DNA of 49,756 nucleotides, counting the filler, from Sphacelaria rigidula (Eukaryota): the NCBI GenBank assembly GCA_964200075.2. It is 3 parts of 3 records of this genome, joined end to end, with 100 filler letters (N's around TTAATTAATTAA, not from the genome) between each part and the next. Parts side by side here need not be neighbours in the genome. Positions count along the whole stretch, not along the records: positions 33,240 to 49,756 come from CAXNAA020001329.1; 2 more parts are not named here. One strand, given 5' to 3'. A program made the position numbers and the translations under genes. Positions within the stretch are counted from its first letter, which is position 1. Every line of letters begins with the position of its first letter. The notes under the pieces are model-generated. The model ran no database searches. It was given only the letters and a program-made list of their open reading frames with translations, and was not told the origin of the DNA. Below, piece by piece: positions 22,701-49,756 of this stretch.

Positions 22701-25700
22701 ACGGTGCCACGGGGAAGGGGAATGACCAGGTGATCGGTACATACCGAGATTGCTGAGTATGGCATGCACGCATGACTGTATGATGACACATACCCTGTCC
22801 CTCCAGTATTTTCTTGTTTATGACGCGTGTCGTTTCTCGAGGATGCAGAGACACTGACTGAAGTATTACCGCAACTCCTTACACGTGAGATGAAAAATGA
22901 GTCATCAACGATCTCGCGAGTGTCACTCGAACTCATTGAATTTAGCCTGGAATAAAGGAGATGGCTCGGTCAGATGTAGTTCGAGGGCTCGAAAATTGCC
23001 ATGTATTGATGCTGATAACTCGAGGTTGGTATGACAAATTTCACGCTGATCTGGGAAGACTGGAGGAGTTCCAAGCATCACGAAGGATGTAGCACCATCT
23101 ACGATGACTCCCGTGAACGCTGTGAGTAGGTCAGTGATGACGCACCAAAACAGCATTTCACTCTCGCCAATGGTGGCTGATCTTTTACAGTATGGCGAGC
23201 TTGACACTGATCTGCGTGCCCGGCATCCAGCACTGTGTGGCTTGGTCATGCTGAAAACACAATCCACGGATTTGGATATCATAAATGTAGGAACTCTTCA
23301 TGTACCCTAGACACATGTGATGAGTCAGACTACACAAGATCTGTGGCACGTGTAAAAAAACTTGTGCAGGCGGTAACGGCGCCGTGCAAGATTCGCCTGC
23401 GTTTCTCATCCATGCACAAGCGCCTGCTATTTTATTTGTTTTCCTCCCCCGGGGTATGTTGCTATGTCGATGATGAACGTGGTCGGATCAGTCTTCCACT
23501 CGGCAGTCATGATTCCCCCTGTGATTTACGGGAGATGAGGAGGAATTGGGGTTGGGTGAGTTATATATATGTACGAGTCGTATATATTATAAGTAATGGT
23601 GGCCGACCAGCGAAGCTTGTACAGCGATATTCAGTTTTATCGGTAACGGTATGCAGCACCCACCGATGTCCAGGAAGTCGATGTGGTAGCGGTCTTTTCA
23701 ATCGTACGTTCACGTGTAGATGGCCGCGATGCAACTATAGTTGGTCTGTCTTCGTCACCTTAGCTTCTCCTATGGTTGACATGCGTCTGATGCACATATT
23801 TTCATGACCGTTTCTTTTTGTGGTTGTCAGGTCCGTTTCGAGATGTGCGCCCAGGCCCTCGATGCCAAGATCACGGCGATCGCACCCTGGCGAGACCCGG
23901 AATTCATCGAGAAATTCAAGGTACGGCGTGTGAGGCATCTCTGCTACCTGTCTCCCGTGTGTGCTTTCAAATCTGAAATGTATCGTTCATATGCCCGGCT
24001 CATGATTTAGTGCGTTATGACTCGATTCGAGAAAGAGGGTGTGCTTCGCCTACAAGTTCAGATGCCTGTGAAGGTAACACCTTGCGTGTACTTTTGGCGT
24101 TTTGTCCCCGTTTACGCCCAACCGTCTCCTCTGTTATTGTTGTTGTTGTTGTCGTCGTCGTCATCTTGACATGACAAACCATTCCGATATCTGCTCGGTA
24201 CAGTCGTACTGGGCATCTTCTGCGGACGCCTTCCGTGGTGCGTCATGTATATTATGTACACATATGTGAATAATGTCAGGACAACCTGTGAAACCGCCAC
24301 GTTGATCCTGTGATCGCATTGATCAGTAGGCAAAACGGTTTGGAATTCTAAAAAGTTTTTGCGATACGCTTTGCTGGCCGGCATAGCATATCTTTGCTGG
24401 CAGGCATAGCATATGCTTCCATGTTGATGAAAAAACATCGACGGAGATACGAGTGTGTAGGAGGTTTTCGCCAGCCTCTGCCTCTGATGTATTCGTCCGC
24501 TATCGTGATATCTTGTGCACATTGCGCAGGGGCGCGGAGATTTGTTGGCCTACGCCGCGGAGCAGGGGATTCCCGTATCTTCCACACCTAAGGTGAGAGG
24601 TAACGGGGCACGGAATATTAATTTTCGCTGATGAGTCAAGCACGACTGATTTTGGAAATGGCTCGTACGGTAAGTAGAGTAGCGCAAATAGCACGTTGAT
24701 GAGAAACTCAGGCCTTGGTTTTTCGAGAATCCGGCGAATCATCGCTGCTTGGAATCGCCAATTCTACGATTCTCGTGGAGTGCTTGAAAATAGAAAACTT
24801 GACCACGGGTCAAAACACCCTCAAGTCCACCGCGGGGCAAAACATCATCGACCCAACAATTTGAGCTATTCCATGTGCCTAGTGTGCAACGCTGAGCAGG
24901 AGAGCCAAATAGTTTATTCGCACGGCATGAATAGATTGCACTTATAACAACCTAGTTTACAGACAAATTGTTCGTCCTACCCCTGAAGCTTGTCAACTGG
25001 GGTCTACCGAATCGAAATACACTTGTCACCTATTCCGCTGATTCCCATGTGATGTACTTTTGTGGGAAGGTCAATGTGATGTGTCTGTGCGGCCCGGCAT
25101 TGTACAGATCGCCTTTGCTATCATGCATCGCTGTGTAGGGAGACGGTCGACATCTGGCGACCCGAGTGTTGTGTATACTATGCATAGGCTGGTCAAAAGC
25201 ATTGATTCACTGCTGGAGCACATCCACTTTTAATCGTGTACTGCCCTTAAGCCCAACAATCGTTCCCACGCTCTTGATCAAGGCGAAAACAGGAAGGTTT
25301 TCAAGCTAATACACATGGAAACGTCAACATACCGTCGAGATTTGACTCCACAACGTTTGCCTCAGAGTACCGTTAATGTACACGATGCCCCGTTTCTGCG
25401 CATGGAGAAATCCATACTGATTGTGACCGACGTCGACCTCTTGGTGTGTGTTTGATAACCGCTCCGGTCGGCCGGCCGGCCGGGCCCCCACAGGCGTCGT
25501 ACTCCATCGACGAGAACTTGTATCACACATCGTACGAGAGCGGTATGCTAGAGGATCCCGCCACGCCGCCTCCCCCGGAAATGTTCAAGATGACCACTTG
25601 CCCGACGAAGGTGAGGGGTGATGGACTGAATTTTCCCTGGGACGCAATCGGGTTGCCGCGAGTCGATGACGTTAGACGGGCTGTAGTAGTGCTGGTCCAG

Positions 25701-28700
25701 CACTCGGTACCGGATTCGAAAGCGGGCACCGAGGGGAAGACGGCGTTGAGCAGTCGGGACTGCGAACTTACTCATGAAACCTAGCGGGGTGAGAGTGGTA
25801 AAGAGTATGAAGAACGAAACCAAACCTACGTGAGAACGGAACTCAGTGCATGTTTTTATTTTTAGCTCATGATCAATCGATGTTTTTCGTGTGTTCGTCT
25901 CCATGAACATCGCGCCTGCCCTCGGTTTCTCAATAACTCAACTCCCTTCTCGTCATGTCCTTCTCTTCGTCGCCAAAGATGCTAGACCATGAACAATCGA
26001 GGAGGTACCATCCGCTTTCAAGCACTTGAAAAAAATCGTATGTCCCCAACTTGAGCATGTCATGCATACGCGTGCGGTTTGTCCTTCGATATGTGATGCG
26101 GCGGGGACGGGGGTGGCGCAGGCGCCAGACACGCCGGAGGAACTGAAGATAGACTTTGCTAATGGAATCCCAGTCAAGGTGGGTCCATAGGGTGTGGTCC
26201 GAGATTGATTTTTACGCGTGTTCTGTTGCACTGCACCATGGTCTACCGACTGCACGCTGGTCGTCCGCGGTGTAAAAATGCATTGCTACTTGCGGGTCTG
26301 CTTGATCCAGTCTGCTATCCATGACTTGGAAATGAGGGACGCAAGTTTGGTACATCACTTGGGAAGGAATCTGGGAAACTTGAAAAGCTCCTGGAATAAT
26401 GCACGTATGGGCGCTGTTCGCAGACTTGCTCGACTTGGAAACGGTGTTGGTACGTGGAGTGGTCTACAAGGCAAGGATACAGTCGTTACAACATGTACTT
26501 ACATACGTCGAGATAACACCCTGGACAAGATTGCATTATCCAAAAATGCAATGCGTACAGGGTCGGGTATTGCGTCTTCTGCAGTAGACAGGAGATTCCA
26601 TACAGTACGCACCACACCTTTAGCAATGTGACGAACACTACAACTTTTATAATGACACTCAATCAAATGAGATTTTTACACAGATACACAGATGATTCAT
26701 CACTATTCTGGAGTTTCAGGGTCGGCAGGCGCTGGATAAAGACGCGGGTTGTGCCCGGCACATGCCCCAATTTCGTGTTGTCGGAACGATGGCCGTTTAT
26801 GGAGGGAGTGTTACCAACCGCGTATAGCCCGGAGAAACGATCTTCACACACAATCGAGGAACATGAAAGAACAGAAGGCGTAGTACTGCTGCACTAAGAT
26901 GCGGATCGGTTCGGTCAAGCGAAAGTATTTTGAGGGCGAGAACCGAGGGCTATGAACTTCTGATGCCGAGATTCCGGTGTGCCCGTACCTCGTCCAAAAT
27001 TGATCGTACATGATATATTTTCGTCGAAACCTGTGTCGGGTATTCATGTGTCTCGATTGTCGAAGTTTGGGATTGAACCGAAACCGTGATGAGTGATGAG
27101 TCACGGTACCCGAAGAGCTGAATAATTGCTTCGAAACTAAAATACTAGTCTCAACTTGACTACAACACTGTCCAAGGTGTGGTCGAGATATACTACGCTG
27201 ATACGATACTTCTCGTACAGTCCGATTCTCACAGTGAAGATGCGCTATGAAAACGTTGACCTGGCCAATGACTGGAGCACTTTTAACAGCCGTAAAAGCG
27301 GTGGTGACGGCAAAGTATTACTGACTGGAGCACTTTTAACAGCCGTAAAAGCGGTGGTGACGGTAAAGTATTACCGAACAAAATGAACCTTGAAGGTTAT
27401 GCTGTTCATCTGGGATTAGATGCGGTAGCCGAACGCCATCCATTTCACTCGTGGAATATTGACGGAGTTGCTCGACTCATTTATTACGTTTGGTACGATG
27501 AAGAGCAGTTTTGATGTTCTTTGCACGCCCGGTTACTTGCCGTGGCAGGAAATGAATAGTTGTGGTTAATCGATGTGTCTCCAGGGTGTTGTTACCCTTC
27601 AACCCTCCCTCGAGAAAATTTCTTCGCTGATCGATGACATCAAATTGTGTGCGCATTTTTGTCGCAGGTGACGAACAAAACGGATGGGACGGTGAAAGAC
27701 ACGCCATTGGAGCTGTTCTGCTACCTCAACGAGGTCGCTGGACGCAATGGAATCGGCCGCATTGATATTGTCGAGAACAGGCAAGGGTTTTTTTCTATCC
27801 TATCTTCAATATCTTCTGTGGTGCCCCGAATCATTCCTTCGTGTTGATACCCGCCCACATCAGCTGGCACGGTCAGCTGAGTGACACACGCGTCATGCGG
27901 GGAAATGTATGTGGGAATGATGCCGCGATAGCCCCGCCCCCCCGAGAAGAGTGAATGGATTGAGGAAGCAAATATATGGGGAAATGTGGGGATATCGGGA
28001 AACATGAAACTCCTGGAAAACGGAGTCGTTGGTGAGCAAGGGAGCTGAGGCTTCGGCGTGTGTGGTCTCGGTGTAGCGCAGGGTTTTAGGGTATCGAGGA
28101 GAGGCAAAGCTAAGGAGAAAACATGAGGGGATGGATAAAATCGGTCACTCTTTGTGACAGTAGTGTTGGTGACCTTTTTAATCGAGACAAAATTCGAATT
28201 TCACAGTGAAATCAGTCATTTCACAAGAACCAACTCGAGAAATCGCACATGAATGTATAATATACGTTCACATGAGCTCGACGGACTAGTCCGCCGTGAC
28301 CGTGTTGGAGTGGAGCACCCTCGGTATAATATACGCTCACATAAGATCATCGTCCACCTCACACAAACACATTCACCTGACCGGCAAGCGACTGTTGAAA
28401 CTTTTTGACGACACGCAGATTCGTAGGAATCAAGTCCCGTGGAGTGTACGAGACGCCCGGAGGTTATTTGTTGCGGGAAGCGCACATGGACCTTGAAGGG
28501 ATCACCGTAGACAAGGAGGTAGGTTTTGCTGGTGCCCGTAGGTATTTTGCCGAGAATGCGGAGGTAGGTTTTGCTGGTACAAGGCGGACGTACGCAGTTG
28601 TTGAGCTAAAACGATCTCCGTATCATGTTCTCCTTTTTTTGAAAAATGGAATTTAGTGAAAGATCACGCACGTTTCATGCTCGACTTGCACTTCACCCCA

Positions 28701-31700
28701 CTGCGTCCTTGTGCGCGAACAAAAAATGGGGATGATGGTGCGTTTTCATGGAAGTGCAACATTAAGATAAAAGGGGCGAATAATTACCGGCGGGACCCTT
28801 AATTTTTATTAGCAGCGTTTTGCTGTCATCCTGTAGCCCGTCGACAGTCGTCTCCCCACATTCGTGTGCATTTTGCACACCTTTGGCTCACGGCGCCAAG
28901 GGGTGGAGTACGTTGGGTACTGACAACATGTGTACCCTTTTCCCCCGGGTACCCGGGGTTACGTGCTTGATCCAAGTGAGCACACCAGGATCTGTGTATG
29001 TAAATTTGTCCGTTTTACCCTGTTATACGTGTTAACTCGAGCACATTTTTGTACAGTTTCCTTTTTTTTCAAAGTCGTTAGACACTTGATGGTAGTCAGG
29101 ACCGCTGCTGCTTCTGGTATTTACCTGAATATGAAGTTGGCCCAAGATGTTGTAAACGAAGTCCAGTGCTGTTCTGCGGAAGTGTGAACAGCCTGTTGGC
29201 TGGAAAGATTCCCGCGCGCACGTCATTGCACGTTGAACCCGACGCTAGTTTTCGACGTAGTCTGCAGTCTGTGAGTTGATCTATTGCCTAACCTGATGAA
29301 GGATCTGCTCTTCACTTTTTTTGGATAACCAGGTTTTTTTTTCCCTGGACTAACTGTGATGAACAGTTGCACCCGGAGACTTGTATTGCGTGAAATACAG
29401 CCCTGTTGCAACGTTGAAGATTTTGGTGCAACCACATGGCAAATCCGTTATGGTGGAAACGAACTGAACCGATACTCTCTCCCACAAGCTGAAGAAACAT
29501 CCCGGGTCTCCTGCACCATCTTGTGTGTAACAACAGGTGGTGCGCGTCCGCGATATGCTCACCGAAGAATTTTCCCGCTTGTGCTACAATGGCTTCTGGT
29601 GAGTTGAGGGAAAATATGCAAATATCCCTCGAAGGATTACAAATGGTCTGGGGGCATGTGGTCGTCCATATGAAAGTCATCCTTTATGACTTTCGGTCAT
29701 CGACACCATTGCTTTGAAGTTATACTTGTTTTTTAGTACTTACCCTCGTTTTCGAAGATGAACAAACGAGAGGACACACGGAAATCGATTTCATGGACAC
29801 CGTTACAAGAATCTACTTTCCAACATCACCGTACCGGCACACACCCGAATACGAGATGCCCGTAGCTCGATGTATCACCGCATTTTGCCATTTTTTTCCT
29901 TCGTAACACGTGGAATAATGTAGGTACGCACCGGAGATGGAGCTTGTGAAGCACTCCATCGCATTCACCCAGCGAGACGTCGAGGGCAGCGTCGACCTCT
30001 CGTGCTACAAGGTGCGTTACGTCCACCGTGACCTATCAGTGTGCTGCTTGCTTCTTGCTTTTCTTGTCTTCCCTCTTCGCATCTCTCTCCCGATTTTTGA
30101 TGCCGGTGTGGTACTCCCCATCAGATTCTGATACTTGAAGTCCTGACGTCCCCGAGTAACGATTCTATCGGAGGGTTCGCGCGATGCCTTTGGCTGGGGT
30201 CAGGGTTGGAGTTGAAGCAAGGTTGCGTAAACAAGTCTCCATGAAGCCAGTGTTATGTCCAGTCATGGCGGTCTAAACAAGGTGGACTGTAATTTAGACC
30301 GATGTCGATGTTTGTGTCTGAATCCCCGCACTGGCAACTTGGTAAATGACTCCAATCCCTACTCTGGTCTTGTAATCATAAGGTCTACCGGTGAGCGGCT
30401 TCGATGATGGAGGAAAAGTCGCCCTGTAGGGGCATGTCAACATGCCCCCCGAAGTACGAGATACAGTACTATCCCTCACTGGTCAGATGACATTTTCCCA
30501 CGCGCCTCGGTCATTTTTGAATTGGAAACATTGGTGGCGAAACCCAAATAATGAGGATGTTCTGTAATGGGGGTGTCCATTCGGATGCAGTACTCGGACG
30601 CGTGGGGTAAGCAAACTGTGGGTTCGAAATAATTGCAGGTTGTATATATGCTGTCGTGGAGTTGTTTTGTCAAGGCAGTAAAACGAATGAACGCCTGGCG
30701 AGCAATGCTTGACTATCAGAACGGTCTGGTCGAGTCTTGTGGAATTTTTGGAAAATAACCGACATGTTTCTTGCCGCGTTACAGGGCAATGTAACAATCA
30801 ACGGTAGGTCTAGCCCCAAGAGCCTGTACAGCGCGAGCCTGGCTTCAATGGAAATCGAGGGAGGTGGAGAGATCGACTACGAGCCCGCGGATGCCCAGGT
30901 GAAGAGGAGACGCGCAAGAAATTAGGAATGTGTCGTCGGCTTTAGAGTACAAAAATATTTCAGCTTTGATATTTTGTCGCAACTTTCGTATATTTTCCGT
31001 TCGGTTTGGACCTACTATTCTGACTGTTCCCTTTTCTCGGAATCTCCGACTTTTGAAGGAAAGACAAACCCGCCCCTCCTCGAAAAATATGGCAAATGAC
31101 AGAGGGACGTGTGCGTCACAGTGGACGTCGCTTCCTCACACGCTGAACAACGTATTTCGTGAAGAAGTGTATTGCATACACTATCCACTGTTGCGTCTAG
31201 TGCAATAGACACAACATACCAGACCCTTCTAATACGATTGCCCTCTTTTGTTCCATCACCTGCGTGCGCGGAATACAACTTTTTTCAAGCTGGTCGGAGG
31301 AATGATGTCATGGGTGCACGTTGGTGTGTCTACGGGTAAATTGAAGCACCCGCATTATCGTTGAGACCTAGCGATCCGGATTGTTGTCTGGCAACGCTAT
31401 TTTCAAGCTGGCCATAAAGCTGATGTATGATACGATGTATTTCCGTACGTGAGGAAACGAGTACGAAAACTCGTGAGGACGAAGCATGATGTACAGTTGG
31501 GAGGGCTACACCCCCAAGTTGAACCGGCTGGCACTTCAGCAGAAAATCATGTTTGTTTTTTCGAAAGACCCCTTTGTTCGACCACTCCAATCGATCCTTG
31601 TTTTGTCTTGCGATGCTGCCTCCCGCCTGCTGCATAAATCACTCCCAAAGAAGTGTTGGGGAAATGAACCACGCCAACCAAGCGACGCATTTCAATGTGC

Positions 31701-31834
31701 ACGATTGCCCTCTTTCGTTTTTCCGTTTTCTTGGCCTGTTCGTGTATCAGGGCTTTATCCGCATCAACTCAACCCGTCTCAAGGCGTACAACTTCCTCCG
31801 CGGCTGCCCGGCATCCCTCAAAAAAGATTTTTGA
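19785..31834 (+). CDS. ASS1: Argininosuccinate synthase (EC 6.3.4.5); 14 exons identified, start exon not located
   Basis: Exons 19785-19864 ([12 protein letters not shown]), 21212-21290, 22245-22345 (YEGRYLLGT), 22630-22729 ([11 protein letters not shown]), 23831-23920 (VRFE..IAPWR), 24530-24592, 25494-25610 ([20 protein letters not shown]), 26122-26178, 27668-27780 ([10 protein letters not shown]), 28419-28518 ([15 protein letters not shown]), 29537-29598, 29924-30011, 30785-30898 (GRSSPKSLY), 31751-31834 (GFIRIN...TGA). They total 1248 nt, or 415 codons plus stop, and all phases are consistent. Confidence 0.97.
20449..20630 (+). mobile_element. SINE-like family A copy in the first identified ASS intron
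   Basis: CTACCGTCGAAAGCGTGAGAACGTAAGTAAAC...GTTGATCCCTTGAGACAACGGACTTTTCCCGAGGAAGGG matches the reverse complement of 1921-2105. Confidence 0.75.
24132..24165. repeat. Compound trinucleotide microsatellite (TTG)n(TCG)n, intronic
   Basis: TGTTATTGTTGTTGTTGTTGTCGTCGTCGTCATC is visible directly. Confidence 0.8.
27269..27374. repeat. Tandem duplication, 2 x 53 bp, intronic
   Basis: TGACTGGAGCACTTTTAACAGCCGTAAAAGCGGTGGTGACGGYAAAGTATTAC occurs twice with one substitution. Confidence 0.92.
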
Positions 31835-33139: not shown

Positions 33140-33239
33140 NNNNNNNNNNNNNNNNNNNNNNNNNNNNNNNNNNNNNNNNNNNNTTAATTAATTAANNNNN
33201 NNNNNNNNNNNNNNNNNNNNNNNNNNNNNNNNNNNNNNN
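33140..33239. other. Artificial contig spacer (N44-TTAATTAATTAA-N44)
   Basis: Identical to the spacer at 16521-16620. Confidence 0.97.
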
Positions 33240-33352
33240 CTTGGACTCCTTTCTCAAAACGACACGGGCGCACTCGAACAGGACACAAATATGATCAGAT
33301 CCTTCATGTGAACTGCAAGTGCGCCCGTGTCGTTTTGAGAAAGGAGTCCAAG
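33240..33352. repeat. Perfect 35-bp inverted repeat at the contig start
   Basis: CTTGGACTCCTTTCTCAAAACGACACGGGCGCACT (33240-33274) is the exact reverse complement of 33318-33352. Confidence 0.9.
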
Positions 33353-33859
33353 GTGGAACCCAATCGCACAGGTTGCTGGAATCGGGATGGTATACCACGA
33401 TCTGATCTATTGCTGCGTTGTTCAAAACTATCTCTTGTGTTGCCGCAAAATCCGACGAGTTCCCAGTTTCTGCAGACCTTGTTGCTGTGGGGTTGGTATT
33501 CGTGGAGTGTCCACCATGTTTCTGAGTACTGTTCTCAACCCAGTTCAGAAGTTACTCCTCTGAGCGCCGCGCGGAGGATTTTGCAAAGTTGCCCTTCCAA
33601 ATAAAATTCCTTGCCTTCCTCCATCTTGGTTGTGATACTGCCGATGACTTGGCGAGCGAGACCGGACGTCACGCCCATGCACCGCTCATCTCTTCTGGCG
33701 GATCGAGACTGTTGGTTGACCGTTTGGCGTCCGCCTTGACCGTTGTTTGAGCCAATCGGGCAACGGACCACGTAGTTTCCATGAACCAGTGTGCGCCGGC
33801 AGACGCATGGCTCGAGATGAACTGGAAACAACAAACCCTGACTACGTAAATGCTCTGGT

Positions 33860-36800
33860 TGGATGTCGGAGAGAGGGGTGATTTGGTACACGTGACATCG
33901 GGTGGGGCGTACGGAATCATGGCCAAACGTACGGTGCGCCCGCGCGGAGCATTGGGTCGAACAAGCGTCGGCTTTTTGCTAGCCCGTCGTCAGGGAGTTT
34001 GTTCCAGAGAAGTTATTACTGTAATCAACCATCGGATGCGAGAAGGATCTCTTTTTGTGGGTGGGTACTAGGCCTTTGAGCTGCTGCCCGCCCTCCCTGC
34101 TATCCGTCCTGCCTGTCGAGTCTTGTCTGTGTCTAGGTTGCTTGCCATGCCGCCTTCCCTAGCCGGCAAGTTGCCTACCTCGTCAGTTCAATAACTTCAT
34201 CTGGCATATCGTGAGCCAGTTCCGTACTGATGATTTCTTGTGGTCAATTCTTGTTGATGGTCTCGCATGCTTCCGGCACGACTTCTCATTGTATAACATG
34301 GTGTGGTCATTCCATCCATGTTGGGCACTGCGATGACTGGTGCTCATGGCGCCGTCAGCTCTGCTGACATGCCCCATGTTGGTGCACTCCTGAGGAAGAT
34401 CTTCCTGCGTGCGGCGAGATCTGCACACCCTGAACACGTGGGGGCGCTGGTTGGATATCGGGGGAAAGGCCTCAGGTACACGCGACATCGGGCGGAGTGT
34501 ACGGAGGGAAATCGAACCCCTCACGACAAGTTGGCAGAGGTGGAGCTCGTTCGGCCCCTCACTCCAAGAGAGCGCCGGATTGAACAAGCTTCGGCCTCTG
34601 CAAACTTGCCCGTCGTGGAGGAAATGTTTTCTCGTCACACCACCTGGTTCACGCGCACCTGGTTGGTCACCTTGATACTTTCTGTTGGCTCCTTGCTAGG
34701 GTGCGATCGCCCGTTAAATTCGTGTGCAACCTCGAATCGCTATAGCGCTCGTGGGGTGTTGAGCATGGAGGGTACGTAGTACACTCGCGTAGAGCGTCGG
34801 GTTGAGCTAGTCCCGCCTCTGTGTACCTGACCTTGTCCAAAAAATTGTTTCTGTGACAAGCGCTTGGTTCAGTATGCCTGAATACCTCGTCATCTTAATC
34901 ATCATTTGCTGATATCTTGGCGAGGTTGACGCCATGGTGCAGCTCACAACTAGTTCCACGGGCAAGACCACATGTACGGCAAACTCTTGTCGGACCACAC
35001 GCAGAGCTATCCCCCGATCACATGGATGTATCCACCCCGCGATGTTCCGCCGCGACTCGACACATGTGCGGTGGGAGGCAACTCAGCCGGTCGGGGAAAA
35101 GGGTACCTGGTACACGTGATGTCGGGAGGGGTGTCCGGGGGAGGAATTTGCCCTCTCACGATGACAAGTGCACGGAGGTTGCGCTCGTTGGACCCAACAC
35201 TCCAGGAGAGCGTTGGCTCGAACGAGGTCCGCCTGCGCGTACTTGCCCTCGTCGACAGGGTTTGTTCCTGGGAGACACTTCCTGGTTCACGCGCACTTGA
35301 GGTCCTCGTCACCAGGCCGATCTTCGCTGAGCTATGACTACAGTTCGCAATGTTCTTGTCGGTCCGGGATGCCTGGTACCTGGTACACGTGACGTCGGCA
35401 GGCGTCAACGGGGGAGAAATTTACCCCCTCGACGATAGGTACGAGGAGGCGGCGCTCGTTGGACCCAACACTCCGGGAGAGCGTTGGGCTTGAATGAGGT
35501 CCGCCTCCGCGTATCGCCCTCGTGGAGAAAGTTTATTCTTTGGAGACACATCCTGCTGTACGCGCGCTTGGGAACGTCGTTACCGCATCTACTACGCTAG
35601 GCTGTGGTTAAATTTTGCCTTTTCCTTGTCGGTCCAAGATGCCGTCGCGCTACCTGGTACGTGACATCGGGAGGTGTGCACGAGGGAGAAATTTACCCTC
35701 TCACGACGATGGGTACAAGGAGGCGGTGCTTGTTGGACCCAACACTCGGGGAGAGCGTTGGCTTGAACAAGGTCGACCTCGGCGTACCTGCCCTCGTAAA
35801 GGAAGTTCGTTCTTCGGAGACACATCCTGCTGTACGCGCGCTTGGGAACGTCGTTACCGCATCTACTACGCCAGGCCGTGGTTACATTTTGCAGCTTTCT
35901 TGTCGGTCCAAGATGCCGTCGCGCTACCTGGTACACGTGACATCGGGAGGTGTGCACGAGGGAGAAATTTACCCTCTCACGACGATGGGTACGAGGAGGC
36001 GGCGCTCGTTGGACCCAACACTCCGGGAGAGCGTTGGCTTGAATGAGGTCCGCCTCCGCGTATCGCCCTCGTGGAGAAAGTTTATTCTTTGGAGACACAT
36101 CCTGCTGTACGCGCAGTACAAGACGCCGTTACCGCATCTACTACGCCAGGCCGTGGTTACATTTTGCAGCGTTTATGTCGGTCCGAAATGCTCTAGTGCG
36201 ACGTGGTACACGTGACATCGGGAGGTGTGCACGGGGGAGAAATTGAACCTATGACGACAGGTACAAGGCGGCGGCTCTCGTTTGGTTCCACACTCCAGGA
36301 GAGCGTCGAGTTGAACGAGTTCCGCCTCCCTGTACTTGCCCTCCTGGGGGAAGTTTGTTCTCGGGGGACAGACACATCCTGCTGTACGCGCACTACAAGA
36401 CGCCGTTACCGCATCTACCACGCTGTGTTCGCTATCCTATGGTTGCCCTATCACATTCGTGTTGGTCCTAAATCCTGTAGCGCCGTGTACCTGCCTTTGT
36501 TTTGGGTAGAAATATTACCTCTCACGACGACAGATATTCCGCGGTTGCGCTTGTTCAGCCCCACACCCGAGAACAGCGTCGCGCCGAACGATCTCGGCAT
36601 CCGTGTACTTCCCGTCGTGGAAAAAGATTTTTCCCGTGGCATGCATCTGGTTCGAGCGCACCCAAGAAACTTCTCGCTGCACTAGCTCCGTCCTAGCATG
36701 TGGTCGTGTTTCGACACGTATCGTGCCTGTTGAACATCCTGTGGTGCTGATCATATGTGGGGGAGAGGGGCCTCGTGTAACACGCGGCATCGATCGGGGT

Positions 36801-36960
36801 GTCAGGTGAGAAATCAAACCTCTGACGATGATGGGTACATGGAAGCCGCGCTTGTGCGGCCCCACAATCCAGGAGAGCGTCGGGTCGAACGAACTCGGCA
36901 TCCATGTACCTACCCACCGTCGAGGACGTTTGGTATCGTGACACAACGTGATTCACGCGT
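33860..36960. repeat. Array of about 9 hairpin-containing units (core period 273-275 bp; diverged outer copies)
   Basis: The anchor TGGTACACGTGAC (with variants) occurs at 33884, 34474, 35108, 35381, 35655, 35929, 36204, ~36485 and ~36775. Each complete unit holds an imperfect inverted repeat around a central CCAACACTCC.GGAGAGCGTTGG. Confidence 0.92.
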
Positions 36961-38649
36961 GCACGAGGATTTCCTCAGACGGGGCAGCTTTGCGCACTCG
37001 CAACCGAAGACGGTATATATTGCGATAGCAAAATAATCTACTGCAGCAGATGCGAATAATATCGTTAGTAATGGCCATCGATCGGCGAATTTCTTTCTAT
37101 TTTCGTCGGCGATATTCTATCTACAGACGAGTTTCCCCCGCTCTTATTTGGGCAGCAGTCTGCTGTGGTCCTGCACCGAAATTCATTGCGGCCAACCAAA
37201 CGCACCGACCGAAAGCTTCACACACCCATTGACGACGGAAATGGCTTCGATAGACCGTGTGCCAAATATAATAATCACAACCATGGCTAGTGACATAGTA
37301 GAACAAATCTGTTGTCGGTACTGACTGACGATAGATGACAAATCTACGCATGCCGACGATGAAACGCGATAGATGAACACCAGAATCTCATCTGGTATAC
37401 GATGTCCATAGGTGAATATTCGATATCGGCTATTGTCACACATGATTGTCGAGGCTATTGCCACACCCTGGGCCTCAAAAATACGTGGAGAAACACCGGC
37501 GCTCGAATAGCCCCGAGAACTTGACGGCCAGGATTGATCGTTATAACCGACTGATACTAAGTTCTTCCGACAGCAACTGTAGGCGACAATAGATTCGTGA
37601 CAAAAAAAAAGGCTGGATCATTGCCGTCACAATGTGGGAACGAATTTGTCTGAACGTTTTATTTGATGGAATGGGCTCTGAAATATGGCCCACCAAAGAA
37701 CCTGTCGCGCGGCCCCCTCTGCGTGTTGCTGGACACGAAATGATATCAAGTGCGCCCACCAATGTCTGTTGAGGGACACGAAAGCACCTGCATCGCAGCC
37801 ACCAATGTCGACTGCTGGACACTGTAACCTGAATCGCGGCCACTGATATCTAAAGTAGGCAGCACCAGAAGTTTTGGAAGTCGTAGTTGTCGTTTTTTCT
37901 GATTTTTTCTGGAGTACCGTTTTTCACCACCACGTGAAAGTGCTAGCGCCGTTAGATTGAGGGAGAAAACAAAGGCCGCGCTCGAACTGTCTTGATACCC
38001 GTTTATCAGGAAAGTGTCTTTGACTGTTTTTGGTCCAATATGAGCAGTGTTCCCGCCCTTCAGCGACGAAACGGTGAATATTCAGACGAACGTAAACGTT
38101 TTCCCATGAGCACTCGAAAGTGCTAGCGTCGATAATTTTGTCAAGATGAGCAAACCGTGCACAAATTACAATCGCCCAAGTTGGTGTTGTGCGGGCGATA
38201 CCGGGTGAAGATCCCGTTTATCAGGAGAAAGTGCCATTGACGTAAATGGTCCAAGAAAGATGGTTTTCCTCCTCTAGCGCAGTGACCAGGTGGAATGTCA
38301 AGAAAATAATCCCGCTGGTTCTTTATCATACGATAGGGATCAAGGCGGTCCACCGAAAATATCGAAAAGCGAGAGCCTGGCGTCGTATTTTTGCAGGACC
38401 CCCAAAAGACGGTCAAGCCCGTAAGTCACTCTTCATTGATCTCATATGATTTTTCTTTCAATATTTGTCAAGAGGATTCAAATATCTCAGGATGCCAATT
38501 TTTTGGCATCCAACAGTCACTGTGATGCGCGGTGGCACGCAAAACAAATTTAGACCATCTTTGGGAAACGATGAGACGAGGGATTCTGCATACTTTTGAC
38601 GCCATCGATCCGTCAATCGCTATGCATGGGCGCTCCCGAGAAAAAATGA

Positions 38650-41600
38650 ATTGGCTGCTGATGGCGATGCTCATATGAAAAAATACGTCCTCCTGATATA
38701 CGGGGCAATTGCTACCGATGGACGACCCACAAACTCGGTGATGTTGGCGAAAACTATTTATGGATATGCCGGAGTGTGTCCGGCACATGCCGAGGTGAAG
38801 AGCTCGCTTACCTCTGACCCCGCCACCCCACCTTCGGTGGTGCGCGGAAGGTGTCGTTCACCGGTTTTTTTTCCGACACTGCTTGTGTTGTATTATTTTC
38901 ATGAAGCAGCTCGTTCTCATTTCCCAGGGTACGGTATCATTTGTTGAGATGAGGAGAGGTAACGAAAGGCAAGAAACGACGATCGGGACCCATTTTCGCC
39001 ACACTGGGTGAGCAAATGATCGTGAAATGCGAAATAGGAAGTGATGCGCCATCGAGCGGGGGGCGGTCAAGGAGGGAAAAGACGTGCGCGTGCAACGACT
39101 AGCCGATTGAGTATCGATTGGAAGAGCTGGAAGTGCCGTTGCACGCACATGGCAAGTGCGTTGCGGTCTGAAATATGTGGAGGGGGGGAAGGTGGAGCGC
39201 GAGTACAGAGTTCGAATGCTGTAGTTACAGACTACTCGTCGATGCCGGAACCATGTACCCGTACCCTTCACACCCAGGCTCTTCCAAAATCAGCGCCGTC
39301 GTTCGTCACAAGGTCGTCAACGGTACCAGTCACCCCGCTACCGCCATCTCAACGCCATATTCGATCGAGTTCCGTTGTCCCGTACTCAACATGTACCAGC
39401 GGAAGTCCTACATATCGTGGATCGACGAGTAGCGTGGCCCCACTGTGTAGCGGGGGAGGGGACGGGGACAAAATAAACGGTGCCGACATTGATCCATTGG
39501 AAGCTGGACCGGATGTATATCCGTTTGAGTTTAGAGATCCGTTGGAGGAGGGAGACGGAGAAAAGCAGTCGGATGCGGAAGTGGGCGACCGAGCCTTGGA
39601 GGCCCGGGGTGATGACGAGCATGGGGAGCAAGGAACAGGTGCAAACCATGAGCAGTCAGCGTGGGGTCGGCGGCCTACACATACATGAGGACCGTAGGTT
39701 CGATATGTTTGAAAGTCAAAGTCAGCAAAGGATGACTGTCCTGTTCTGGTTCGCGTTACTCCACCCCTACCCCACCCCACTCCGTATTGCTTGAATTGCT
39801 TGCCTCGACGATGACTGGGGAATAGGGCTGTCATCCTTTCAATTCCTTCCGGTCTTTGAAGCAAGTTCGCACGTTCGAGAGATGAAACACATACATGCCG
39901 CACGTCTAACACTTACGGTTTCGCGGAACGAGCAATATTTCGCTGTTGTGACATCGATAGCTATTCTACATTCATCTCGCGACATTTTCACACCCTGGAC
40001 AACAGTTCACGTTGTCGAAAAGTATACCGCGTACAGTATCGACTGCTACACATGCCCATGGTTGGCATGATGAGAGATTTCATACTGTATGCCGAATAAT
40101 TTTTGATGAACGTGGTCTGTTGTCGAGGGTAGAAAACATTTGACCATGGGCAGTATATATTGAAACGGTGCGATAGACAAGTGATCCAAGTCAAGTCGAG
40201 TCAACTCATTTCAACTACTAATATGTTTGTTCTGGGTGAGTGTGAAAAGGAACGTCGTATGTTCATGTTTACTGGAAAGATTTCATAGCAAATAGACTTC
40301 CGCCAAATAGAAGATTTTACAGCTGGTATACAGGGGGTGTGTTACAGCTGGTATACAGGGGGTGCGGTGGTATTCGGTGAGACGTCATGTACGCTATATA
40401 GCAGACAATATAGCGTTTTTCTAGACCTTGGGTATCCTGGGTCACACTTGCTCCGCAAGTTGTGTGAAGACGTGTAGAGACGAAATGCACGAAATTCGGA
40501 GAAGTTTTTGAAAATAACGCCTGAAGAAACTCATGACGAACTACTCTCCGCACTCATTCCCCCTTCCTGTCTACCGCTCCCTCCCTCCGCGTTTACCTCG
40601 CTTGCTTCGAAATGCACACGTAGTTTGTGGTGAAGATGGGGACGAGGCTACAAATGCGGTGGTGCCCCGTATAGTCGAGGTCAAACCTAAACGGGGAAGG
40701 CCCCGGAAGACAGTGACGATGTCGGAGGTTGCAGCCGACAACGTTTCCCAGAGCGGTAAACCAAAGCGCGGGAAACCGCGGAAGTCCGATACAGCCGAGA
40801 ATCCGATGGCGTACAACGGTGAAGAGGACGTGCAACACTTGCGGGTATCTCCATCGGATGTGCTCATGTTCATGCAGGAGAAAGGGGGCAGGCGAGTGGC
40901 TCAGCGATGAGGACAGACTGCGATGCATCGTCGCCCATTCTGCCGTGTATTTCATCTCACCGCGTGGTCGATGTACCGAAATATGTACCTGAGTAAGGGG
41001 TCACGAGAACGTGTGCTGTGGACTGTCCAATTGCTCGAGGTGGTCTCGTGTCAACGCGCATGGCTGCCCAAAAGCATTAGGTTACGCTCATCACTATTGA
41101 TAACCCTAAACAGCGGTAGGGTTTGGAGAGGTGGAGGAGCGCCCGATGGGTTGATCAGTTGTTGCTCCCCCGACCGCGTTCTCTGACATCGAGAACACTG
41201 TTGAAAATGCGACAAAAATATGATCCACCAATTTTTGTGGTGGTATGACACGGTGACCCCCTTGTGATCGGTAGGCAAAATGTTACGTCTAGAATGGGTA
41301 TGGTGCTTTTTCATTAGGGGGCGAAGAAGCGGGCAGTGAACGGTCCAACACGCGATATGTGATACCCATCCGTAATACTGCTGTTAAGTACTGTACATGA
41401 TCCCATATAAATATATCGCGGTACCGCATGTCGATGTCGAACGGCCACCTATACCGATTCACAAGAACAAGAATCGTCTGTGGTTCCTGGTAAGTTGATC
41501 CTTTATCTGGTGCAACTAGGGATTTCCCCTCGAAGGGGTGGCTTCCCTCTCATGTCCCACACACTTGAAATTAGAGCTCGGAAATGGTTTGTCCAACCAT

Positions 41601-42636
41601 GAACCAGTTGAATGGTTACGCGCAGCGCACTCATGAACCGGTTCAATAGTACATGATGGTTTTGTCATCGAGGGGTGCAGCCGCGAGCCAAAAAGCCTCC
41701 CCGGTAGAGGAGGTCCTGCCGGAGGCGCAACCGGAGGATCCCGCCCTGCGTGAGGCACGTTTTTACACATTTCGGCTCCAAGTGAGCTAAAAAATACATC
41801 CAATTTGGATCAACGTTCAAGGACTGGATGTACCATACATGATCGGTAACGGTTTATGAAGCCGGTAACGGTGAAAAATGGTTTGAAGCCATAATCCAAA
41901 AATTTCACATCAACACATGATAACGATGGGCAGTTATAACTGGTACTATTTTCGAGCAATACTGAAGTGAATTCGGTCGCGTGTTGATGATAGGGGTAAC
42001 ATGATTGGGAACTTCTCCAGTGATGATATTCCTGACAATAGTACAGCAACCAGACAGCCCCGGCCCATCGGTGTCCCGCATCATCATCTCACCATGAGTT
42101 GGCATGAGTTGGAGCTTATTTACCCCATTATCCCTGCTCCTTGCGCGTCTCCCGTTCCTACCTATGAACGACTCAGGCCCCGGAGCTTGAGGAGACGGAA
42201 GCGAGTCGACCCCATGTTTCCGAAAGATCACCCGTATCCGTTCGAATGGATCAACAACTGCGAACTTCCGCATGGATGTCGAGCACACTTCGTGAGTGAA
42301 CCGATCAGTTCCTGCCTGTTGAGTATGTATGCACAAACATCCTCTGGAATTGACAGTTGCAGCTTGAAAGAATGGATACGAGACAGAGACTGGTGGTCTG
42401 GCGGTCCAATGGTCGTGGAATCTTTTCTCGAGTATGAAATGAAGGTTAATTGGTCACGTTCGGGTACAGTTCCGCATCAACGCGAAATTCGCGAAAAGCG
42501 GCGAGCCCATCGGCAGAAGACATGGAAGTTGACGGAAAGTCGAGCGGGCCTGCCGGGAGGTGACCTGCAACACATATCGGCTTTGCTCGGCTACGAGCAA
42601 TCTATATCCCCATTTGTGGAGATACAGCACAAGTAG
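38650..42636 (+). pseudogene. Decayed multi-exon gene with two AT-hook-like motifs and Ulp1/SUMO-protease-like (peptidase C48) segments; probably transposon-borne
   Basis: KRGRPRK (40689-40709) and KRGKPRK (40764-40784). After a frameshift come GEWLSDE...VYFISP (40891-40962), YRNMYLSKGSRERVLWT (~40974-41024) and YKYIAVP...PIPIHKNKNRLWFL|GTAAG (41406-41489). Open frames also span 39041-39688 and 42001-42636. The family assignment rests on motif order only. Confidence 0.4.
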
Positions 42637-45535
42637 TTGCCCCTGACACTCTATTTGGAAACCCGGAGCTGCTGTTTCGCAAATCGAATGTCCAGCTGTG
42701 CGGTTGTTTGGCAGGTTTCTCACTCTGATATTTTGAGGAACAGGAAGTATCAACCGCTTTGCTAATCATACTTCTTTTTCACCAAATGGTCTCTACTTCT
42801 GTGTGTCTGACACGCTGGCTCAGGGTGAGTGTCCGTTTTTTTTTTTCACTCCCACACAGATTGCGAAACAGACACACGTACTAAAAATTGAACATGCTCA
42901 GATTTTTTCCTCGCGTTCTTTGCGGCGGTGCTGGTATCATGTTCCTCGCCCAATCATGGGCCTTCAAATTGGTCTGAAATTGTAAGCTTCTGTAACCAGC
43001 TAAGGGATTTAACGCCAAAGAACGATTTTCAAGCGGTTTGTATGCAATTGAGTTATACTCCAAAAACTGGTTTTTGATCATGTGTGGTCTTGCGTTGTCA
43101 AGCATCCCTTGATGAAGGCTGGGCCGCCGAAGACGCCCACTTTTCTTCAATCCGTTCTGACAAAGGGTATATCGCGAGTCGTGCCTACGATGACATCGTC
43201 ATAATCGGCAAATCATCACGCGTCTTCAAATCCATGTAGCACTGCGATCCGAAAAGGTCTTATCAAACGAAATACCAACCTGTAGTCAAGAGTGCGTTAT
43301 GCTGCGGAATTAGCCAAGAGAAACCGGCTGAGATTGTATTTTCCGTCACGGTCAGTTTTGTGCCGCGTGGTGCCTCACAACCTGTAGCTCAATTTCCGAG
43401 TTCAATACTTGGTCGTTTTCGGTGAAATTTTGACATGCTGGTGTCTGCTCAATTTTGGATCGTTTTCGATAAGTTTTGACACGACAAACATGACGTGATA
43501 CTCACACAGCCGCGTGACATTGTGATTGGCCAATTGTTCTCGATCTTGGCAGTTTGATACAGTGGTTGTGAACAAGAGGAAATAATTTCGAATCGTATCT
43601 GAAAGTTTACCTCATCTGTCATTTTGAAAAGCTCGCGCGAAGACTCATCGAAGCCGGTCGATCTCAGCTCAAGCGCACGAGGAAAATGACAGTAACACAG
43701 TTCAAGACGAGTGGTCTGACGGACTTTCCGTACGTTCCGTTTTTTTAAGTCGACATTCACTTCTCCCTGTGTTTTTTCCTTCGTATTCCGTCTTGCAAGT
43801 GTGTGTACCACGGGGGCACCGAAGAAGATAATGCACTCGCCGCTAAGCTTATCGGGAAGGTCAAGGGCACCTACAAGAATCTCATCAACGTGAGTGTGTG
43901 GAGGACGATGCCCGCGGTCCACCGGCCCGCAGGTCAATTTGGGTTTAGTTACAGTACACATCCGTGTTGCCTGCGAAGCAGATGAAAACAATTGAGGATG
44001 ATGGATCTCACGCGTTTCTGCGTTGTCGGGAGGAACGGACACAAAACGGAATGCGGGTCGACGAAGGAGAACATAGCTAACTACGCCTAGGTCTATGCGA
44101 TATATTGCGATATATTCTCATCTCTTCTCTTGCTACACTGCGACATGTGATGAGTTTATTGCACCAGCTCCAATTGACTGAGATATTCTCCCCTACACGA
44201 GACTGTGATCTCAACCCTCTGGTTCGTTTCCCTACTATGGTACCTACACCTTTTGATATCGTAATATATCGTTCATGGTGTGGAAACGGCTGTGAGGAGC
44301 ATAATAACGGTACATCACCCAACATTTTTTGCACTTTTTTTCGATCGAGGAAGTGCGATCCGTTTTTTTTGCCGATATGATGAGCCCACCGAATTTATCT
44401 CTTAAAAGACTCGATTCACAGTTATCATTCGTCGACCGCATGTTTACGGTCGAAAAGCACCACGCGGGCTTGACTTACATTGTACGGACCACAACGCCGG
44501 ATAACAGTGCTTGTCTTCAACACTAGCGAACCCCATACAAAATATTCCCCACCACCGCAACCCTTCAGCATGGAACACGAGGGACAACAGGGATAGATAC
44601 ACTGCAATATATTTGCGTATGCTTTTTGATCTTCAATTGGCGAATAAGTTGAGCATCTTCGTTCATGGTGGGAATTAGCGACGGTATGTGTGGCAAAGAG
44701 GGCAAAGCGGCTTGAGAACAAGCTTATGGACAATGCAGGTAACGCGGAGCTGCACCTAGTTGAAGTCCTGTCGCGTCGCATTTTAGGAACAGGCTTTCCT
44801 ACGCTGTCTGCGCTCGGTGTTGCCCGCATTTCATCAGCCTTCTGTGCGAAACACGCATACACACTTCAGACACAAATCATGTGAACAGTGCAGGCAGCAG
44901 ACTCTACCTTACTGTACACGAAGGATGTGCACGTTTGTGCGCGGCACGGAAGTACCGATTAAAATGCCACCTCTTCTTCTCCCCAAACTTGTCCGTCGAT
45001 TGATACGTGTTTCAATGCGATGTACCGGTGATCAGGTGTTGGAGATGAAAGCGGAGGAAGGTATTTTCATTCCGCGAGATATTGTTCTGAACGGCGGCCC
45101 CTTCGAGATTTGGCTCGAGTCCACTGATTGGGTGAGTTATTACACTAGCTGGTGAACGATGCCGTGCACGCGCGGAGGGGGGCGATGTGGGGGTTCGGGT
45201 TAGATGATACGTATTCGGCACTGTTTCAGAAATTGTTTCCTAATTTTTCCTGATTCATGTTCATCTGTGCCACCGTTCAGTCGCATTCAAGAGGAGTTCC
45301 CGGAGCCAGAAGGAAATTAACATCATGAAACAGATAACGGATCTATCAACCAACGAGCGGTTGTCGACACTTCTCTACGCTGTACATTTTGAACTAGAAT
45401 ATATATTTCAATTATTTTGTGCTCAAATCGAACGAGATATCGCCGGTTCGACTTGGAGAGAAATCATGGTTTAGTACGAGTGATGGTCATGTTCCACCGT
45501 CTGTTATTTCGTGCTTTCCCTGAAGTCGGTACTTG

Positions 45536-46013
45536 GGCCGGACGTCATTGCACACGATATTTGGCCCACGGATTGTTCACTTATGATACGTTTGACCGAC
45601 CTTTTTACCCAAGACATTGAAAACCGCCAACACACGTCTCGGACACTTTTCATCACCCCTCAGAGAAGCATAGCCCACTTTTCATATTCGGTTGGCTCCC
45701 ACGGTTTGAGAGTGGCCGCTGAAACATGGTCTGTGTGCAACAAAACCTGCGGCGATCTCTACAAGGATTATTCGGCAAACTGGAGGGGTTAGACGAGCAC
45801 AGAATTTTTGTACACAGTTTTTTTGTTCAGCGGGCAACCTCGAAACCGCGGAGGCAAGCGAATATGAAAAGTAAGCTAGGCTCTTTCCTCTCTGTGGGGT
45901 GTTGCAAAGTTTCCGAGACGTGTCTCCCCCTGTGTGCGGGTCCAAAAGTGAGTTGAACGTCCCCAACGTGAATAATCCGTGAGACAAAATTCTGTGTGCC
46001 ATTACATCCGGCC
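45536..46013. mobile_element. Fold-back/MITE-like element: ~215-bp imperfect inverted arms around a ~40-bp spacer
   Basis: The left arm GGCCGGACGTCATTGCACAC..CACGGATTGTTCAC..ACACGTCTCGGACACTTT..ACTTTTCATATTCGGTTGGCTCC..CCGCTGAA aligns along its length with the reverse complement of 45795-46013. Confidence 0.8.
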
Positions 46014-46683
46014 TCACGGCCATGATGTGACGAATAGCCCTGGTTGAACCCCCGAATTTTTTGGCCTCTCAGAATCAGTGAGCAACCCGGGATCGATTTG
46101 AAATTTGTCAAATGAACCCTAAATTTCCGAGCATGCAAACGGTTGGTACCCAACTCGAGGTTGTGACACGGATCTAGACTCTGCCCCCATAACGACGAAC
46201 GTTGGCGGATGCTGTGAACGCCCGCGGCAGCGCTTGTGGTCGTAGCTCGTTCACGGGGGCCACCCAAGACTACATCCCCGAGTCTAAAAGGAAGACTCGA
46301 ACGCGAATGGAAAAGTCGAGACACTCTTCCGACGTGAAATACGATGACGCAAAAGAGGGGGAGTTGGCCGCTCAAGCAGTCGGCACAAGGATTGTGGGGA
46401 CCACCTCCGCTCCTCCGCGTCATCTTGAGCGAGATCGACAGGTGTTTCTGTTCCCGCGTTCCCTTACACGCAGCTAGGTGGTAAACCTTCATTGAGAATG
46501 AAAAAAGTTCCATCACGATGTGCACACGTGTACTACAGACGGTTCAGTACAGAACACTTGAAACAGACAGCGTACAGAACTGTCTACAGTGCAACAGTAC
46601 GGAGGAGACCAGCCTAGGAACGGACACAACTCCCGAAGCAAAATCTCAGTGACACAGATGAGTTGAGCCGTGCTCCGCATGTC

Positions 46684-46820
46684 ATTTAATCGTTCAACAA
46701 GGGAAAGGTGCCCATCTGATCATAAATCTGGGCCATTATTTTCACCTTGATTCAACCCCATGTCTGCTCATTCCTATACGCTACGGAGATAGCGTTCACA
46801 CTAGAATCCATGTGAAATCC
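46684..46820 (+). repeat. Dispersed ~140-bp direct repeat, copy 1
   Basis: TTAATCGT..CAAGGGAAAGGTGCCCATCT..TGGGCC..TTGATTCAACCCCAT..ATTCCTATAC..GGAGATAGCG..TGTGAAA recurs at 49459-49597. Confidence 0.8.
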
Positions 46821-49458: not shown

Positions 49459-49597
49459 ATTAATCGTCGAATCAAGGGGAAGGTGCCCATCTACTCAAAA
49501 GTTTGGGCCCATATTTTCTCGTTGATTAAACCCCATATATATCTAGTAATTCCTATACCAAGGGAGATAGCGCCAATACTTAAATCTCTGTGAAACT
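49459..49597 (+). repeat. Dispersed ~140-bp direct repeat, copy 2
   Basis: Colinear with 46684-46820. Confidence 0.8.
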
Positions 49598-49756
49598 ACC
49601 GATTTATGCATTTATTTAGCCGATGGCGACGAAAATTGGTGTGGAGAACCGCAGAAGAGTGCCGAATAAAAAAAAAACTGGGCCTTCGTTCTTTTCTTTT
49701 TTTTCATAAAGGTTACAGCTTTTCTTGTGAAGAAATGGTCTTCACCATACTAACAC

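Follow-up and report, generated by a model that had tools for sequence, protein, structure and literature searches.

The hairpin array and its host gene

The analysed stretch of Sphacelaria rigidula DNA (assembly GCA_964200075.2; 49,756 nucleotides (nt), referred to below as the window) contains, at about 33880-36973 on the plus strand, an array of ten related hairpin units, u1 to u10 (Table 1). The sequence suggests a candidate ten-unit intronic microRNA (miRNA) cluster that co-evolves with the shuffled TPR exons of candidate immune receptors. A profile search recovered no further unit in the rest of the window. Eight units are whole (u2 and u4-u10) and two are partial (u1 and u3), with much of the 5' arm missing in both. 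A whole unit is 196-200 nt long and folds back on itself over its entire length; the fold-back of 80-110 nt per unit given in the initial annotation is therefore too short, as it takes up the full ~195 nt. The array packs ten units, among them eight different predicted guide sequences, into 3.1 kb. Only u4-u9 stand in a 271-276-bp tandem, Tandem Repeats Finder confines the 274-bp period to 35104-36423, and the spacing of u1, u2, u3 and u10 is irregular, so that the proposed tandem array of ~274-bp units holds for the former group and fails for the latter. The reported unit spacings of 273, 274, 274 and 275, the stem pairs of the copies at 34474, 35929, 36204 and ~36775, and the change of CTCGTT/AACGAG to CTTGTT/AACAAG between copies were all recovered when the sequence was checked. 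Units u5-u7 are near-copies (85-92% alike) that stem from recent tandem duplication, and the oldest duplications appear to be those among u2, u9 and u10. At 35598-35985, a contig of DNA run X6 with a depth of 47 shows about 10 differences from u6 and by eye is neither u5 nor u7 where checked; the bin depth there is 100, compared with ~68, possibly reflecting an extra unit or another allele absent from the assembly.

The array lies in sense orientation in intron 1 of a spliced, plus-strand protein gene, because 33240-39277 is one contig that reaches the splice joint before 39278. The 5' part of this intron and exon 1 are presumably located in the gap at 33140-33239. A loose contig end before 39275, present in runs X3 and X8, exactly matches G000:C22401:1197-1226 on the minus strand, a sequence found once in the genome. 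On this contig, exon 1 is 150 nt long, coding and bounded by a GT donor, and its frame continues in the exon that follows the CAG at 39275-39277; by eye, exon 1 resembles a signal or targeting peptide. Splice joints of the host gene were present in runs X1, X3 and X8, compared with none in DNA run X6, and four of five have GT..AG ends. No scored homologue of the host protein was found, with weak look-alikes only. The last exon (47849-48040) resembles two proteins of 84-86 amino acids, P0002 and P0005 (E 6e-7 and 1e-4), and this likeness seems, by eye, to continue into exon 45036-45131. DNA depth is 58-100 in the array bins and ~66-72 in the adjoining single-copy bins. Contigs of the three runs X1, X3 and X8 span u8-u10 (36226/36253 to 38032/38133), are thin over u4-u7 and are almost absent left of 34342. 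Level, ends and strand cannot be read from such contigs, a break at 36204 is present in the DNA run as well, and X1 and X8 seem to be a single data set deposited twice; the breaks in the transcript contigs would fit cleavage in the array, and they are not used here as support.

Table 1. Coordinates of the array units, the host gene and other features of the window (predicted passenger and guide positions refer to the 21-nt register; the target reading is the peptide encoded by the complementary exon start).
Feature	Position	Strand	Predicted passenger	Predicted guide	Target reading	Remarks
u1, decayed	33880-34020	+		33968-33988		5' arm mostly lost; guide register has ceased to match TPR exons
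u2 hairpin	34470-34665	+	34526-34546	34591-34611	GKFAEA	
u3, partial	34745-34880	+		34812-34832	VRYTEA	most of 5' arm absent; first base C
u4 hairpin	35104-35303	+	35164-35184	35228-35248	GKYAQA	
u5 hairpin	35377-35574	+	35435-35455	35500-35520	GRYAEA	guide identical to u7; 1-nt deletion near 3' end
u6 hairpin	35651-35848	+	35709-35729	35773-35793	GRYAEV	
u7 hairpin	35925-36121	+	35985-36005	36049-36069	GRYAEA	
u8 hairpin	36200-36398	+	36257-36277	36321-36341	GKYREA	
u9 hairpin	36472-36668	+		36594-36614	GKYTDA	weakest fold; predicted passenger from 36530
u10 hairpin	36772-36969	+	36831-36851	36895-36915	GRYMDA	
Host intron 1, 3' part	33240-39277	+				total intron length 7.2 kb or more; 5' part, with exon 1, on contig C22401
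Host exons 2-7	39278-48040	+				~39278-39636, 40622-40893, 42177-42291, 43800-43889, 45036-45131, 47849-48040
Argininosuccinate synthase gene	19797-31830	+				exons ~19800, 25500, 28430, 29930, 30790, 31750
Perfect inverted repeat, unrelated, same intron	33240-33352					35-nt arms, cut by contig start, single copy

Folding and covariation of the stems

On the plus strand, seven of the ten units fold more stably than dinucleotide shuffles (z -2.0 to -4.5), the exceptions being u1, u3 and u9 (z 0.2 to 0.3; 0.23 for u9). The minimum-energy fold on this strand is unbranched in six of the eight whole units and branched in u5 and u9. Across the whole units, 13 of 56 pairs are changed on both sides, compared with 7.3 +/- 1.7 in shuffles (0 of 500 reach 13), and pairing registers slid by 1-3 columns give only 1-4 double-sided changes. 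Two Watson-Crick pair types occur in 9 of 40 columns; in simulations with matching divergence, neutral decay from a perfect palindrome reaches that value with P 0.0007-0.035. The earlier claim that the stems covary between copies with pairing kept is borne out by these values, and both the hairpins and their covariation are real. Mismatches stay at fixed places of the stem while adjoining pairs covary. Old copies of the hairpin are 58-69% identical, and the 78 nt located 3' of u2, like those 3' of u10, resemble no other unit more than shuffles do. Conservation of the apex equals that of the predicted guide (0.73 each, in the five least related units).

The predicted guide and its candidate TPR exon targets

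The 3' arm contains an invariant U, unpaired in seven of the eight whole units, and an invariant A.C mismatch 19 pairs further down; together they bracket one 21-nt duplex with 2-nt overhangs. This register was picked from the structure ahead of any target search and is one of 25 U-starting registers listed. The predicted duplex lies 43-44 nt from the loop in all eight whole units. Between 15 and 17 of the 21 bases of the predicted guide are paired with the opposite arm in seven whole units, which thus show the pairing of at least 15 nt used as a criterion for brown-algal miRNAs (Tarver et al., 2015); in u9, 14 of 21 are paired. The first base of the predicted guide is U in 8/8 whole units and C in u3, and this base is also matched by a conserved A in the target. 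In published descriptions, most brown-algal miRNAs are intronic, sense and 21 nt long and start with 5' U, and their foldbacks average 170-183 nt (PMC4513859; PMC5381526, Table 1). The array shares with them the long foldback (196-200 nt), the intronic position and the strand of the host gene.

The predicted 3'-arm 21-mer, decayed in u1, is antisense to nt -1 to 20 of 126-nt TPR exons in genes of the NB-ARC-TPR type and in related TPR genes. A genome search allowing at most three mismatches to the 21-mer gave 66 matches for u2 (2 in the control) and 45 for u8 (6 in the control), the latter including two exact matches in TPR repeats of contig C12236. Many matches recur at ~420-bp steps. The matched sites are the starts of 126-nt exons that lie between AG and GT and read GKYxEAEPLYERCQ. 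In a loose test that left out 22 u2 and 9 u8 matches located outside the examined DNA, an AG acceptor and a TPR-like exon start were present at 43/43 u2 and 34/34 u8 matches. Pfam TPR_12 was matched by all five exons tested, four of them above the cut-off, and the 126-nt TPR exon was absent from 17 of 20 further genome stretches examined. Among 23 NB-ARC matches in the genome, five lie 5' of TPR exon arrays on the same strand (contigs C3, C1829, C1255, C5738 and C4985); NB-ARC followed by shuffled 126-nt TPR exons is the layout described for NB-ARC-TPR genes of Ectocarpus (PMC3341825). As a side observation on contig C12236 (L077), each 420-bp TPR repeat at 540-1260 minus seems to hold a second, decayed exon-like copy within its intron, and two TPR exons of this contig end in a stop codon in place of Gln.

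Unit-by-unit comparison was made with 171 exons, 152 from contigs found with the u8 and u10 guides and 19 picked through NB-ARC. At most three mismatches separate 103 of these exons from at least one unit, and such exons occur on 18/18 exon-bearing contigs. For u2, the fitting exons are 15 of 16 (C1409) and 9 of 11 (C1255); for u8, 6 of 7 (C15892); for u10, 3 of 14 (C7370); and for u4, both exons of C4985, with one mismatch between its guide and a GKYAQAE exon of this NB-ARC contig. The best fit of u6 has 2 mismatches, and 16 of 152 exons stand at a penalty of 4 or less from it. Three of the five non-self matches of u10 are TPR exon starts on one TPR gene (C7370). At the level of predicted pairing, the units are shown to divide their targets, different units best fitting different target loci.

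Signature of selection on the 21-mer

When antisense mismatches to the TPR exons are counted along the units, 0-4 are found at the predicted guide in nine of the ten units and 5-9 elsewhere. Per-base log-odds to the exon profile amount to +0.8 to +1.35 within exon nt 1-20, all bins outside this stretch are negative (-1.3 to -3.5), and none of 1215 other hairpin 21-mers reaches a penalty of 4 in either exon set. The exon-profile score of the 3' arm is 8-21, compared with -6 to +5 for the paired 5' arm. The target match of the 3' arm is thus far above that of the 5' arm, and the strand is therefore plus, the sense of the host gene, which folding alone left undecided.

The eight distinct guides read GKFAEA, VRYTEA, GKYAQA, GRYAEA, GRYAEV, GKYREA, GKYTDA and GRYMDA. 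Measured against an exon set partly chosen with the guides, the 21 distinct substitutions among the guides are biased towards bases that occur in the targets (P 0.00005-0.0007), and per-position diversity of guides and targets is correlated (rho 0.64, P 0.0016). Variation is greatest at third codon positions (0.29 vs 0.11 and 0.18), and amino acids are also altered. The initial conclusion that the constraint is not protein coding is correct insofar as the DNA of the array is non-coding, but the 3' arm is constrained by the codons of its targets. Likeness of the precursor arms to the target beyond the mature sequence was not found in a profile search of the spliced two-exon context, which gave just 21-27-nt matches; the origin of the precursors is either old or different.

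Copies elsewhere and rejected identities

Searches of the 244-Mb assembly revealed no second copy of the unit, and the array occupies one contig only; these searches give lower bounds, and very diverged copies could escape them. Genome motif matches numbered 39, compared with 54 in the control, and the hairpin model detected no hairpin in 24 of those loci, in two flanking stretches or at six further motif loci. A metagenome scan gave eight apex-motif matches, none with a hairpin (17.7 bits or less), and the apex pattern had no match in viral contigs. No Rfam 15 family matched the array at E up to 5, and scans for tRNAs and for bacterial promoters and terminators gave nothing on it. Several other identities were considered and rejected. 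Coding by the units themselves was not adopted, the long open frames over the array having no convincing Pfam match (best E 0.033). Features of introns or mirtrons are not conserved across the units by eye, and neither are RNA polymerase III A/B boxes or motifs of the hammerhead, signal recognition particle RNA and small nucleolar RNAs. A retroelement 5' region does not agree with a single-copy array lacking similarity outside itself in the window. A miniature inverted-repeat transposable element (MITE) or foldback transposon does not agree with one contig only and with motif matches elsewhere that are near control level and free of hairpins.

Proposed mechanism and alternative explanations

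The array is very probably a tandemly expanded intronic family of candidate miRNAs, which would act on TPR-repeat messages in the manner of plant miR482/2118; its processing and silencing activity are what we infer. The initial proposal of a polycistronic pre-miRNA or hairpin small interfering RNA (siRNA) cluster making different small RNAs gains support from the host intron, the strand, the 21-nt register and the TPR target family. It is proposed that intron 1 is transcribed together with the host gene and that Dicer-like cuts, at a fixed 43-44 nt from the loop, would free the 21-nt duplex with its 2-nt overhangs. The 3' strand, with its 5' U in 8/8 whole units, would then be loaded on the single brown-algal Argonaute, and the loaded guides would damp NB-ARC-TPR and TPR messages, in which sites are numerous, with one per repeat exon. 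Brown-algal miRNAs are reported to act through one Argonaute, probably on translation (PMC12867755). During evolution, tandem duplication would have supplied the copies, the guides would have diverged along with the target family, and the passenger arm would have compensated, while the remainder of the stem would retain the processing scaffold. Stem covariation would in part arise because the guide follows diversifying targets and the passenger arm compensates.

Several observations weigh against this proposal. The link to exon 1 consists of single contigs in two runs (X3 and X8) and one unplaced contig (C22401). The fold alone leaves the strand unfixed: G.T outnumbers A.C 68 to 49 (P 0.096), z-scores favour the minus strand in 8/10 units and free energy the plus strand in 6/8, and two invariant A.C pairs would be G.U on the minus strand. 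On the side of the targets, the u10 21-mer shows no genome-wide excess (6 matches, 5 in the control), and u5, u7 and u9 have no exon within three mismatches among the 171, the best being 4 for u5 and u9. These three units may be decaying, or their targets may lie outside the examined exons, as the genome holds at least 307 candidates. Selection of 152 of the 171 exons with the guides biases the profile tests, and in the 19 exons picked through NB-ARC a penalty of 4 or less is reached by u2 (5) and u4 (2) alone (union 7/19), the other seven units reaching it in none. The target site ranks only 35th of 126 exon windows by conservation. Precise processing and loading of the candidate small RNAs are predicted from sequence, and in Ectocarpus ago mutants the predicted targets are reported to be little changed at the mRNA level (PMC12867755).

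The debatable issue closest to the miRNA proposal is the mode of dicing. The array might be a hairpin-siRNA locus in which imprecise or phased dicing yields several small RNAs, the TPR-matching one alone being under selection; its targets would be unchanged, but formal miRNA criteria would fail. Stems of ~195 nt could hold several 21-nt steps, the loop distance of 43-44 nt equals about two such steps, apex and guide are equally conserved (0.73 each), and many Argonaute-bound small RNAs of Ectocarpus come from unannotated introns, as reported in PMC12867755. However, a single window per hairpin matches a target family, and the stems are rich in mismatches. Hairpins that give rise to siRNAs are typically perfect, and this explanation is considered quite improbable. 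The remaining functional explanations concern the position of the site, which begins at the last acceptor base and covers exon nt 1-20 in nearly all exons. Guides might act on the exon boundary, in pre-mRNA or chromatin, steering the splicing or shuffling of TPR exons and not the silencing of mature mRNA. The shuffling of these exons (PMC3341825) and the predicted site of Ectocarpus esi-MIR11372 on NB-ARC-TPR genes, at nt 105-125, the opposite end of the same exon type, are consistent with such action. Yet pairing does not extend further into the intron, base -1 is G in the spliced mRNA too, and ordinary silencing of shuffled genes would equally need a site within the exon, which makes boundary action very unlikely. 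It was also considered that the array is an expandable library of RNA guides for shuffled TPR exons, each unit covering other variants and helping to decide which exons are spliced in or recombined. The guides would help to choose exons in that reading because the site begins exactly at the splice acceptor; we regard it as improbable.

Non-functional and mobile-element explanations account for less. Arm-to-arm gene conversion produces covariation, and the hairpins could be a neutral relic, that is, an old inverted TPR-exon duplication, palindromic satellite or foldback element, amplified in tandem, whose pairing is kept by such conversion. The 5' arm is indeed weakly sense-similar to TPR exons in the paired register, and u5-u7 are recent near-copies. 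This explanation is largely refuted by the TPR likeness, which does not reach beyond the 21-mer and is much greater on one arm than on the other; conversion, offered by the initial annotation as a neutral alternative, does not explain a match limited to the 3' arm and to 21 nt. In addition, mismatches persist at fixed places beside covarying pairs, the hairpins outlast their flanks and no dispersed copy was found, so that a neutral relic is scarcely credible. A cruciform or single-stranded DNA origin, or a recombination array, located at a viral or large mobile-element terminus and comparable to baculovirus hr repeats, was also proposed for the locus, and imperfect palindromes in tandem would suit it. 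It is almost certainly wrong. A single locus was found for the array, within an intron between the argininosuccinate synthase gene and the host exons, its depth is flat and single-copy (58-100 vs ~66-72 in neighbouring bins), the apex pattern has 0 matches in viral contigs, and the match to TPR codons would be left unexplained.

Other features of the window

The perfect inverted repeat with which the contig begins resembles a young brown-algal pre-miRNA and is possibly a separate hairpin RNA; it may extend into the gap. The hairpin at 33241-33351 gave two weak matches to miRNA models (Rfam 15), below the gathering score, and no long match to the repeat was found among the examined TPR/NB-ARC stretches. 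A broken fragment of a reverse transcriptase of the long interspersed nuclear element (LINE) type lies at 16954-17979 minus, with named relatives in Pylaiella and Ectocarpus at 72-76% identity. The region 13350-15070 contains a 42/85-bp repeat array with short internal palindromes. DNA depth indicates very high-copy repeats (tens of thousands and more) at 37650-38750, 41500-42050, 43160-43700, 45630-45920 and 48670-49756, and 45632-45923 has long inverted arms and is MITE-like.

Relation to known systems and implications

The array is not a member of miR482/2118, and no homology is claimed; by analogy, it would work like that family. As described in PMC5026261, miR482/2118 and other NBS-LRR-targeting miRNAs likewise target a conserved coding motif within a large and duplicated NB-ARC receptor family, target codon diversity drives miRNA diversity, so that guide diversity follows target codon variation as in the array, and old members, too, have no similarity to the target beyond the mature sequence. 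Unlike the plant site, which is a single P-loop, the site of the array lies in repeated TPR sensor exons, many per gene, and unlike miR482/2118 its members form one intronic tandem array.

Closer in lineage are esi-MIR11372 and esi-MIR3457, sequenced 21-nt 5'-U miRNAs of Ectocarpus with NB-ARC-TPR/TPR genes among their predicted targets (PMC4513859, Tables S2 and S3). The second of them is intronic, sense and 3p, as predicted for the array guides, whereas both are single loci with unrelated precursors of 98 and 144 nt (PMC4513859). Pairing of esi-MIR11372 is at exon nt 105-125 and that of the array guides at nt 1-20; counted from nt -1 to 20 for the latter, both sites are within one base of a splice site. 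Prediction of miRNAs on NB-ARC-TPR genes in Ectocarpus is also reported in PMC3341825 and PMC3874173, and Cock et al. (2010), as cited in PMC3341825, predicted that miRNA families target shuffled LRR/TPR exons; the citing passages mention neither a cluster of diversified guides nor a test of co-variation with targets. The Ectocarpus and Saccharina precursors searched in the supplements of PMC4513859 and PMC5381526 gave no match to short pieces of the array. Brown-algal miRNAs are, according to these two papers, almost all single-copy, unclustered and without validated targets. The clusters known from Ectocarpus and Saccharina japonica arose, like the array, by local duplication of pre-miRNAs (PMC4513859; PMC5381526), but those of Ectocarpus are two pairs (PMC4513859), compared with ten units here, and those of Saccharina number six, all but one consisting of two genes, with families of at most three members (PMC5381526). 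The literature searched, mostly open-access, gave no report of a multi-unit cluster bearing diversified anti-TPR guides; the 295 putative miRNAs of PMC12867755 may include one.

If the miRNA reading is correct, then the array is a ten-unit cluster whose guides record selection on a named target family, and it would provide evolutionary evidence that brown-algal miRNA targeting works and depends on almost complete pairing. With the exact 21-mers, coordinates and sites, the regulation of the candidate receptors can be tested directly, and other brown-algal genomes can be searched in the same way. If, instead, the guides choose exons, then RNA-guided control of a receptor repertoire would exist in a lineage far from animals and plants. 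Exon-shuffled NB-ARC-TPR genes have been proposed to be pathogen receptors (PMC3341825). If the candidate miRNAs act on them as proposed, then plants and brown algae, whose miRNAs are of independent origin, would show convergent evolution of diversifying miRNA families that keep NB-ARC receptor genes in check.

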